Of a stretch of DNA of 64,000 nucleotides, positions 43,077 through 43,532 are shown in pieces. Source of the DNA: a phage; the sequence record PZ452596.1; one strand, 5' to 3'. Position 1 is the stretch's first letter. Every line of letters starts with the position of its first letter. Under the pieces are notes generated by a model. That model saw only the letters and a program-made list of their open reading frames with translations. It was not told the origin of the DNA and did no database searches. The position numbers and the translations under genes were made by a program.

Positions 43077-43532
43077 TTATTTTAAATCATCTGCCCAATC
43101 GAGTTTAAGAGGCTCTTTGTATTCACGATCTAATACGACTGGAATTTGTACATCACCGCTAAATGATAAGGGCCCAACATTATAAGACAATGTTATATGC
43201 GGTGTGTAATCATCAAAATCATGTGTAGCACCTAGTGCCCGCGCATACATGTGTCGACAACGCAGATATTCAGAATCTAGTACAAGTACAAGAGTCGATC
43301 CATCTTGTGTTTTCCATACTTCTAAATGTCCAGAAGAAGCTACTTCAAAACTTCCACTCGATGGAACATATGGAACATTTACTCTTGAATAACATATAGT
43401 CGAATGAATTTTTTCTCTAGGAACTGGATTAGGAACACGTAAAGAGCGCTGAAGTTCTTCCAGCGCATCAAGTGTTAATTCTGAAAACTTAGCTGCTACA
43501 TAAAGACCCGTTGAAAAGTCTTTAAATTCCAT
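43077..43532 (-). CDS. 57B: 2H-phosphoesterase family protein gp57B (Acb1-type anti-CBASS cyclic-nucleotide phosphodiesterase)
   Basis: 151-aa ORF with two H-x-T/S motifs (IHSTI, PHITL); position immediately upstream of 57A. Confidence 0.7.

Follow-up and report, generated by a model that had tools for sequence, protein, structure and literature searches.

Enterobacteria phage RB27 very probably carries the two known anti-CBASS genes of phage T4, Acb1 (gene 57B) and Acb2 (gene vs.4), a reading to which we assign a probability of roughly 0.95. Both genes are identified here by sequence, and the activities of their products are taken from published experiments on T4. Acb1 would destroy the CBASS second messenger before effector activation, and Acb2 would sequester the signal without cleaving it.

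The window analysed here is a stretch of 64,000 nucleotides. Its interval 42000..45000 is 100% identical over 3 kb to the genome of Enterobacteria phage RB27 (KM607000.1 / NC_025448.1), and the other T4-like phages among the matches listed are 96.6–97.3% identical to the same interval. RB27 is a Tequatrovirus whose host is E. coli B. Positions in the RB27 record are converted to positions in the window by subtracting 27286, and acb1, acb2 and all neighbouring genes noted below lie on the minus strand of the window. The window differs from RefSeq RB27 at gene 49 and is not base-for-base the same record.

15184..15657, minus strand: gene 49 (endonuclease VII), an intact 157-aa ORF in the window.

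RefSeq RB27 annotates this gene as two fragments, 49 and 49′, because, where the window reads 'GG', that record shows a 1-nt gap followed by an N ('-N'). The ORF of 157 aa is unbroken in the window, so we reject a split of gene 49 in RB27; the RefSeq 49/49′ split is a sequencing or annotation artefact.

The acb1 region contains five features that bear on its identity.

43532..43774, minus strand: gene 57A, the tail-fibre chaperone gene and upstream neighbour of acb1 (Pfam GP57, E 5e-51).
43530..43534, minus strand: TAATG junction, read from the sequence, in which the 57A stop overlaps the acb1 start.
43077..43532, minus strand: acb1 (gene 57B), encoding a 151-aa 2H phosphoesterase from an ATG start, assigned by Pfam and by identity to T4.
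43398..43406, minus strand: first catalytic motif, H43-S44-T45 (IHSTI), codons CAT TCG ACT.
43191..43199, minus strand: second catalytic motif, H112-I113-T114 (PHITL), codons CAT ATA ACA.

Two H-x-T/S motifs, IHSTI and PHITL, had been predicted in the ORF at 43077..43532, and both are read from the minus-strand sequence in its 151-aa product. The same ORF had been proposed to be the counterpart of T4 57B, described as Acb1, and this identification is confirmed: from the ATG on, the product is identical to T4 gp57B (NP_049750.1) at 151 of 151 residues. RB27 residues H43/T45 and H112/T114 equal H44/T46 and H113/T115 in the 152-aa numbering of T4, so that the two HxT motifs coincide with the published catalytic tetrad (PMC9117128). 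The product also matches the Pfam Acb1 family (PF23474) along the entire profile, positions 1–144 of 144, with an E-value of 2.6e-60 and 202.7 bits (cut-off 27). Because the protein sequence is the same as that of T4 Acb1, the Acb1 assignment is as firm as sequence evidence allows. T4 Acb1 (Hobbs et al. 2022, PMC9117128) likewise follows 57A and precedes ipI.

A structural reference is provided by Acb1 of Erwinia phage FBB1 (PDB 7T26, apo; 7T27, with 3′3′-cGAMP), which comes from a different phage and host and is 32% divergent. The RB27 protein aligns with it (PDB 7T26) at E 4e-62 and 68% identity over 142 residues, spanning residues 8–148 with a single 1-residue gap. Both HxT motifs of RB27 57B fall on the HTT and HIT of FBB1 Acb1, and the more distant solved Acb1 9Q2G is also aligned at both. 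The C-terminal lid segment (..LDWADDLK) is present, is the same as in T4 and aligns with FBB1 Acb1. From the 68% identity to the FBB1 structure, we infer that RB27 Acb1 folds compactly as a 2H phosphoesterase, with a C-terminal lid over the ligand.

The original prediction placed 57B immediately upstream of 57A, an order that has to be reversed. On the transcribed minus strand 57B lies immediately downstream of 57A, and the two genes meet in the stop/start overlap TAATG, with the 57A stop TAA at 43534..43532 and the 57B ATG at 43532..43530. Since the 57A stop overlaps the acb1 start, translational coupling of 57A with acb1 is likely. RefSeq RB27 starts 57B one codon before this ATG, at ATA (43535), a start evidently carried over from T4, where that codon is ATG. 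In T4, acb1 begins with ATG twice in a row, and the annotated product is 152 aa long; RB27 reads ATA-ATG, and its residue numbers are one lower if the ATG is taken as the start. The two phages are distinguished at the 57A/57B junction (43530..43535, minus strand) by a single A/G polymorphism, GAATAATGG in RB27 against GAATGATGG in T4. The RB27 form gives 57A the stop TAA and places ATA before the 57B ATG, whereas the T4 form gives the stop TGA and ATG-ATG. That a natural variant reads ATA-ATG suggests that the second Met of the T4 57B annotation is enough as the Acb1 start codon. Exact matches in IMG/VR number two for the ATA-ATG junction and one for the ATG-ATG junction, too few to rank their frequency.

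The activity of the T4 protein is well described. Working with T4-infected cells, Hobbs et al. purified an activity that cleaves cGAMP and showed gene 57B to be its source; they also compared wild-type and acb1-deleted T4 for cleavage in lysates and for plaque formation on cells that carry CBASS (PMC9117128). Deletion of acb1 abolished cGAMP cleavage in T4 lysates and sensitised T4 to CBASS (PMC9117128). T4 Acb1 is a 2H phosphoesterase with an HxT/HxT tetrad formed by H44, T46, H113 and T115; its catalysis is metal-independent and goes by way of an intermediate with a cyclic phosphate, and the H44A/H113A mutant is inactive (PMC9117128). The term 'anti-CBASS nuclease', used for T4 57B in the original prediction, needs refining: Acb1 is not a general nuclease but a 2H phosphodiesterase of cyclic oligonucleotides that works without metal. 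By analogy with the sequence-identical T4 protein, RB27 Acb1 would be a small monomeric enzyme whose HxT/HxT tetrad supports metal-independent acid-base catalysis. It would open the 3′-5′ bond 3′ of adenosine in 3′3′-cGAMP, cUA, cAAA and cAAG, and would leave c-di-GMP intact.

LigT and other 2H RNA ligases and 2′,3′-cyclic phosphodiesterases share both the fold class and the HxT/S motif pair with RB27 57B. The gene could on that basis encode a 2H RNA-repair enzyme, either a LigT-like 2′-5′ RNA ligase or a 2′,3′-cyclic phosphodiesterase, acting on broken tRNA or mRNA ends. Existing names point in this direction: the RefSeq product name of RB27 57B (RB27_142) is 'RNA ligase', PHROG 755, which matches 57B, carries the same label, and one related record names its 57B homologue 'RNA 2′,3′-cyclic phosphodiesterase'. 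The gene also lies about 2 kb from the tRNA cluster, and the HxT/HxT pair is common to all 2H enzymes. However, at E<0.1 the product matches the Acb1 profile, over its full length, and no other Pfam family; LigT and CPDase families are absent from the matches. The substrates demonstrated for the identical T4 protein are cyclic oligonucleotides, and it was through cGAMP cleavage that this protein was purified, with loss of activity and sensitivity to CBASS following its deletion (PMC9117128). 'RNA ligase' is a name carried over at the level of the fold, by annotation older than the Acb1 work or made without regard to it, and for 57B it is outdated; the label of PHROG 755 names a family rather than a demonstrated function. 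An RNA-repair function is extremely unlikely, and we retain the identification of 57B as Acb1.

The second gene, acb2, and the codons of its base-stacking residues are located as follows.

32708..32974, minus strand: acb2 (gene vs.4), encoding the 88-aa subunit of a cyclic-dinucleotide sponge (hexamer), with an ATG start and Pfam, PDB and T4 matches.
32951..32953, minus strand: Tyr8 codon of Acb2 (TAT), base-stacking on cGAMP; invariant in 11 homologues.
32729..32731, minus strand: Phe82 codon of Acb2, the second base-stacking residue; the F82 column is invariant.
32984..32987, minus strand: GAGG, a Shine-Dalgarno-like sequence 9 nt 5′ of the acb2 ATG.

The ORF at 32708..32974 had been noted for a resemblance to the Vs.4/Acb2 family and for its place in the vs cluster. 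The resemblance is borne out by identity to T4 Vs.4 (NP_049728.1) at 82 of 88 residues (93%), by a full-length match to the T4 Vs.4 structure (PDB 7UQ2, E 9e-53) and by a match to Pfam PF24729 (Acb2/Tad1 hairpin; E 1e-19, 70.9 bits, cut-off 27). A note in the RB27 record tags the gene as vs.4 and places it between vs.5 and vs.3, in agreement with the predicted location, and its RefSeq product name (RB27_121) is 'hypothetical protein'. The start of acb2 lies within the 3′ end of vs.5, the two genes sharing 8 nt, and its stop runs into the ATG of vs.3 as TAATG; a longer TTG-initiated ORF over acb2, reaching 33010, is not the annotated gene. T4 Vs.4 (PDB 7UQ2; Jenson et al. 2023, PMC10097602) has the same length and occupies the same place in the vs.5-vs.4-vs.3 run, but a 36-nt gap separates vs.5 from vs.4 in T4, whereas the longer vs.5 of RB27 extends into the start of vs.4. 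The original prediction proposed aligning both products with characterised family members. In these alignments the catalytic His pairs of 57B align with those of T4 and FBB1 Acb1, and the 88-aa protein aligns with the Acb2 family, both at E-values that put the resemblance well outside chance.

Published work on T4 Vs.4 assigns roles to individual residues. The protein forms hexamers, each taking up three molecules of cGAMP (Kd about 30 nM; Jenson et al., PMC10097602), and it releases the bound cGAMP intact instead of cleaving it. Y8 and F82 stack on the cGAMP bases, Y8, H11, K23 and R79 make polar contacts, and L29, A66, A73 and A77, together with F33, form the hexamer interfaces (PMC10097602). 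T12I, S74N and A77I are loss-of-function alleles, Y8A weakens cGAMP binding, F82A lowers it more than 25-fold, and deletion of vs.4 makes T4 CBASS-sensitive (PMC10097602).

The RB27 and T4 proteins are separated by six substitutions (RB27 to T4: D13E, F44L, S46N, D50C, L52F and S57A). Y8, H11, T12, K23, L29, F33, L60, A66, A73, S74, A77, R79 and F82 are the same in both, and all published cGAMP-contact, hexamer-interface and loss-of-function positions are unchanged in RB27 Vs.4. The cyclic-dinucleotide pocket is complete, having the stacking residues Y8 and F82, the polar-contact residues H11, K23 and R79, and S74 (roles from PMC10097602 and PMC12657218); in the sequence comparison the hexamer interface (L29, F33, A66, A73 and A77) is in the T4 state. 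Six copies of RB27 Acb2 would assemble into a hexamer with three pockets, each built from two subunits, that trap cyclic dinucleotides by Tyr8/Phe82 stacking and by polar contacts from His11, Lys23 and Arg79.

We aligned 11 Vs.4 homologues, with identities as low as 54%, from Tequatrovirus, Mosigvirus, Moonvirus, Dhakavirus, Slopekvirus and Pseudotevenvirus. Y8, H11, K23, L29, A66, A73, S74, A77, R79 and F82 are invariant across this set and F33 is nearly so. Residues 1–33 and 66–88 are nearly invariant, while residues 37–65 are hypervariable and contain indels. Five of the six RB27 substitutions, at residues 44–57, fall in this hypervariable segment, and the sixth lies at position 13, itself variable (D, E or K).

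The original prediction called Vs.4 a cyclic-oligonucleotide sponge, which is correct for cyclic dinucleotides and too broad for trinucleotides. T4-Acb2 binds cGAMP, with a Kd of about 84 nM in this study, but neither cA3 nor cAAG (Cao et al., PMC10312549). Acb2 of Pseudomonas phage PaMx33 (PDB 8H2J and related; Huiting 2023, Cao 2023/24, PMC10312549) belongs to the same family and shares the hexameric dinucleotide sponge mechanism, and each of its hexamers holds two cyclic trinucleotides in addition, bound by way of R67 and T74 (PMC10312549). It is only about 24% identical to the T4-type protein, which has D61 at the position of R67 and a narrower pocket; a phmmer search with RB27 Vs.4 did not reach PaMx33 Acb2. 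PaMx33 residues Y11 and K26 are reported to be conserved across the family (PMC10312549), and by position and role they probably correspond to Y8 and K23 of T4 and RB27.

In T4-Acb2, residues Y37, A57, L60, D61 and T64 may clash with a trinucleotide ligand (PMC10312549). The RB27 protein has Y37, S57, L60, D61 and T64 at these positions, departing from T4 only at S57, and at D61 and T68 it resembles T4, which sets its sequence apart from the trinucleotide-binding subtype of PaMx33 and JBD67, marked by R67, T74 and a helix whose kink makes room for cA3 or cAAG in a three-fold pocket. As the occluding residues are in the T4 state except for a slightly larger S57, RB27 Vs.4 is expected to bind dinucleotides only. 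Because T4-type Acb2 does not bind trinucleotides, such signals would be left in RB27 to Acb1 alone.

Members of the Acb2 family do vary in ligand range: some homologues bind cA3, and some, such as Acb2_43, bind the Thoeris signal 3′cADPR and not cGAMP. RB27 Vs.4 could accordingly have gained cyclic trinucleotides or 3′cADPR through its central-helix substitutions, five of six differences from T4 lying at residues 44–57 and residue 57 lining the occluded trinucleotide pocket. Against this, the dinucleotide pocket is unchanged and RB27 keeps D61 and T68. Even the D61R mutant of T4-Acb2 still fails to bind cA3, as its pocket helix is unkinked (PMC10312549), and the change from T4 to RB27 at position 57 (A57S) puts a larger side chain into a pocket that is already occluded. 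Tad1 (Thoeris anti-defence 1) and Acb2_43 have the Acb2/Tad1 hairpin (PF24729) and the sponge principle in common with RB27 Vs.4, but their ligands are gcADPR or 3′cADPR, whereas RB27 Vs.4 keeps the T4-type cGAMP pocket. Acb2_43 has extra N- and C-terminal β-strands, makes different contacts and does not inhibit CBASS; the 88-aa RB27 protein is collinear with T4 Vs.4 and lacks these terminal strands. The substitution pattern of vs.4, given below, bears no sign of adaptive change. A ligand range different from that of T4 is therefore very improbable. The RB27 allele is not identical to the T4 protein that was tested, and with S57 in the occluding set a small shift in range would be just conceivable.

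Acb2 is also a liability, as it triggers the Panoptes defence (PMC12657218). In T4 mutants that escape the Panoptes (OptSE) decoy system, acb2/vs.4 is hit by loss-of-function mutations, F82C among them (PMC12657218). The RB27-only allele, with its cluster of changes at 44–57 that includes S57 and D50 in place of T4 Cys50, could be read as measurably altered in ligand range or affinity, for example with weaker binding of the 2′,3′-c-di-AMP decoy that would evade Panoptes while still blocking CBASS. We consider this very unlikely, and the preferred reading remains a T4-type dinucleotide sponge.

Homologues of both proteins are widespread. A collection of 50,697 phage records contains 1471 with an Acb1 homologue and 1232 with an Acb2 homologue. 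Of these, 607 and 619 respectively are named 'Escherichia'; because these counts are similar, the two genes probably occur together as a rule in this group. In 499 records the Acb1 protein has an identity of 99% or more. The Acb2 allele exactly as in RB27 is confined to the two RB27 records among the 50,697, with 178 more at 95–99% identity. One Vs.4 homologue, 79% identical to that of RB27, comes from an UNVERIFIED record named 'Campylobacter phage B15' (MG065650.1, 41899..42159; Phapecoctavirus), an unexpected host label, as the other Vs.4 homologues here are from phages of enterobacteria.

Between RB27 and T4, 57B shows three synonymous nucleotide differences (pS 0.028, pN 0) and vs.4 gives pS 0.264 and pN 0.033, a pN/pS of about 0.12. 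With 57B changes synonymous only and this low ratio for vs.4, the comparison indicates purifying selection on both genes. At synonymous sites vs.4 has diverged from T4 about ten times as far as 57B, a difference between loci that fits a mosaic history. The 20 nucleotide differences in vs.4 are all within its first 177 nt, and none falls in the final 90 nt; their confinement to this part of the gene suggests a recombination boundary inside vs.4. We considered an arms race as the cause of the greater variability of Acb2 than of Acb1 in Tequatroviruses and reject it for the RB27/T4 pair, given the pN/pS of vs.4 and its roughly ten-fold synonymous divergence relative to 57B, which point to a mosaic history under purifying selection.

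The same data dispose of the idea that either ORF, or both, might be open by chance or be a pseudogene in decay and yield no functional product. Both ORFs are short, neither has a significant promoter signal beside it, and the annotated RB27 57B start is the non-canonical ATA. Yet both frames are full length with their functional residues intact, homologues number in the thousands of records counted above (1471 and 1232), substitutions are synonymous only in 57B and give a pN/pS of about 0.12 in vs.4, and a canonical ATG lies one codon past the ATA, overlapping the 57A stop. On these sequence data the chance that either frame is non-functional is negligible, and the notion is already refuted by conservation.

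Around acb1 and acb2, promoter and terminator scans gave no more hits than shuffled sequence did. Downstream of 57B there are two TG-extended TTTACA-17-TACTAT sites, which precede ipI and trna.4; their position downstream of 57B led us to reject them as acb1 promoters. One such promoter-like site lies between acb1 and ipI, at 43063..43035 on the minus strand. Both acb1 and acb2 lie in long minus-strand gene runs, each overlapping its upstream neighbour, and these overlaps suggest that the two genes may be co-transcribed and translationally coupled with their neighbours.

Several other genes in the window are of related interest. The next gene downstream of acb1 is ipI (42714..43004, minus strand), which matches the Pfam family IPI_T4, 'nuclease inhibitor', at E 7.5e-54. 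We take its product to be an injected inhibitor of the GmrSD restriction enzyme, in which case acb1 and ipI would be two anti-defence genes side by side. In RB27 the interval from vs.8 to e holds just one internal-protein gene, 'Ip4' (34564..35037, minus strand; Pfam DUF7412, E 1e-95), where T4 has denV, ipII and ipIII; denV is absent from RB27 at that position. A 56-aa ORF at 16639..16809 (minus strand), whose annotation is 'antitoxin from a toxin-antitoxin system', weakly matches the Pfam family of the T7 gp5.9 RecBCD inhibitor (E 4.9e-4, 20.4 bits, below the curated cut-off of 24.5). Two further window enzymes act on nucleotide derivatives: tk.4 (30552..31019, minus strand), with a Macro domain (Pfam E 2.9e-6), and nudE (35664..36104, minus strand), annotated 'nudix hydrolase' in the RB27 and T4 records and credited in the T4 record with activity on FAD, ADP-ribose and diadenosine polyphosphates.

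The tRNA cluster (40347..41174, minus strand) holds 10 tRNAs, for Arg, Asn, Tyr, Met, Thr, Ser, Pro, Gly, Leu and Gln, and has no segB, while the T4 cluster, into which the segB homing endonuclease gene is inserted, has 8 tRNAs, one for Ile among them and none for Asn, Tyr or Met. The genes rnaC and rnaD lie at about 40081..40345. Between tRNA-Gln and trna.2, a 171-aa ORF, RB27_137 (41261..41776, minus strand), has no Pfam match; T4 has only a spacer of about 100 nt at this site.

The presence of two anti-CBASS countermeasures in one phage is already known from T4. T4 encodes Acb1 and Acb2, and acb1, acb2 and double deletion mutants have been described (PMC12657218); a 2025 preprint lists for T4, besides Acb1 and Acb2, a third sponge named Sequestin Y16O. 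The prediction of two independent countermeasures against cyclic-nucleotide signalling thus holds for both of its gene calls and restates for this phage what has been stated for T4. In the collection of papers searched by full text, none mentions RB27 together with CBASS, and neither RB27 nor its protein accessions occur in the supplementary files searched from the founding Acb1 and Vs.4 papers, so that in this literature RB27's own copies of acb1 and acb2 have gone unremarked.

For annotation, the product name of RB27_142 should be changed from 'RNA ligase' to Acb1 and that of RB27_121 from 'hypothetical protein' to Acb2. Beyond annotation the importance of the finding is slight, Acb1 and Acb2 being well characterised in T4. 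RB27 is expected to behave like T4 on CBASS hosts and, owing to Acb2, to be sensitive to Panoptes-type decoy systems.
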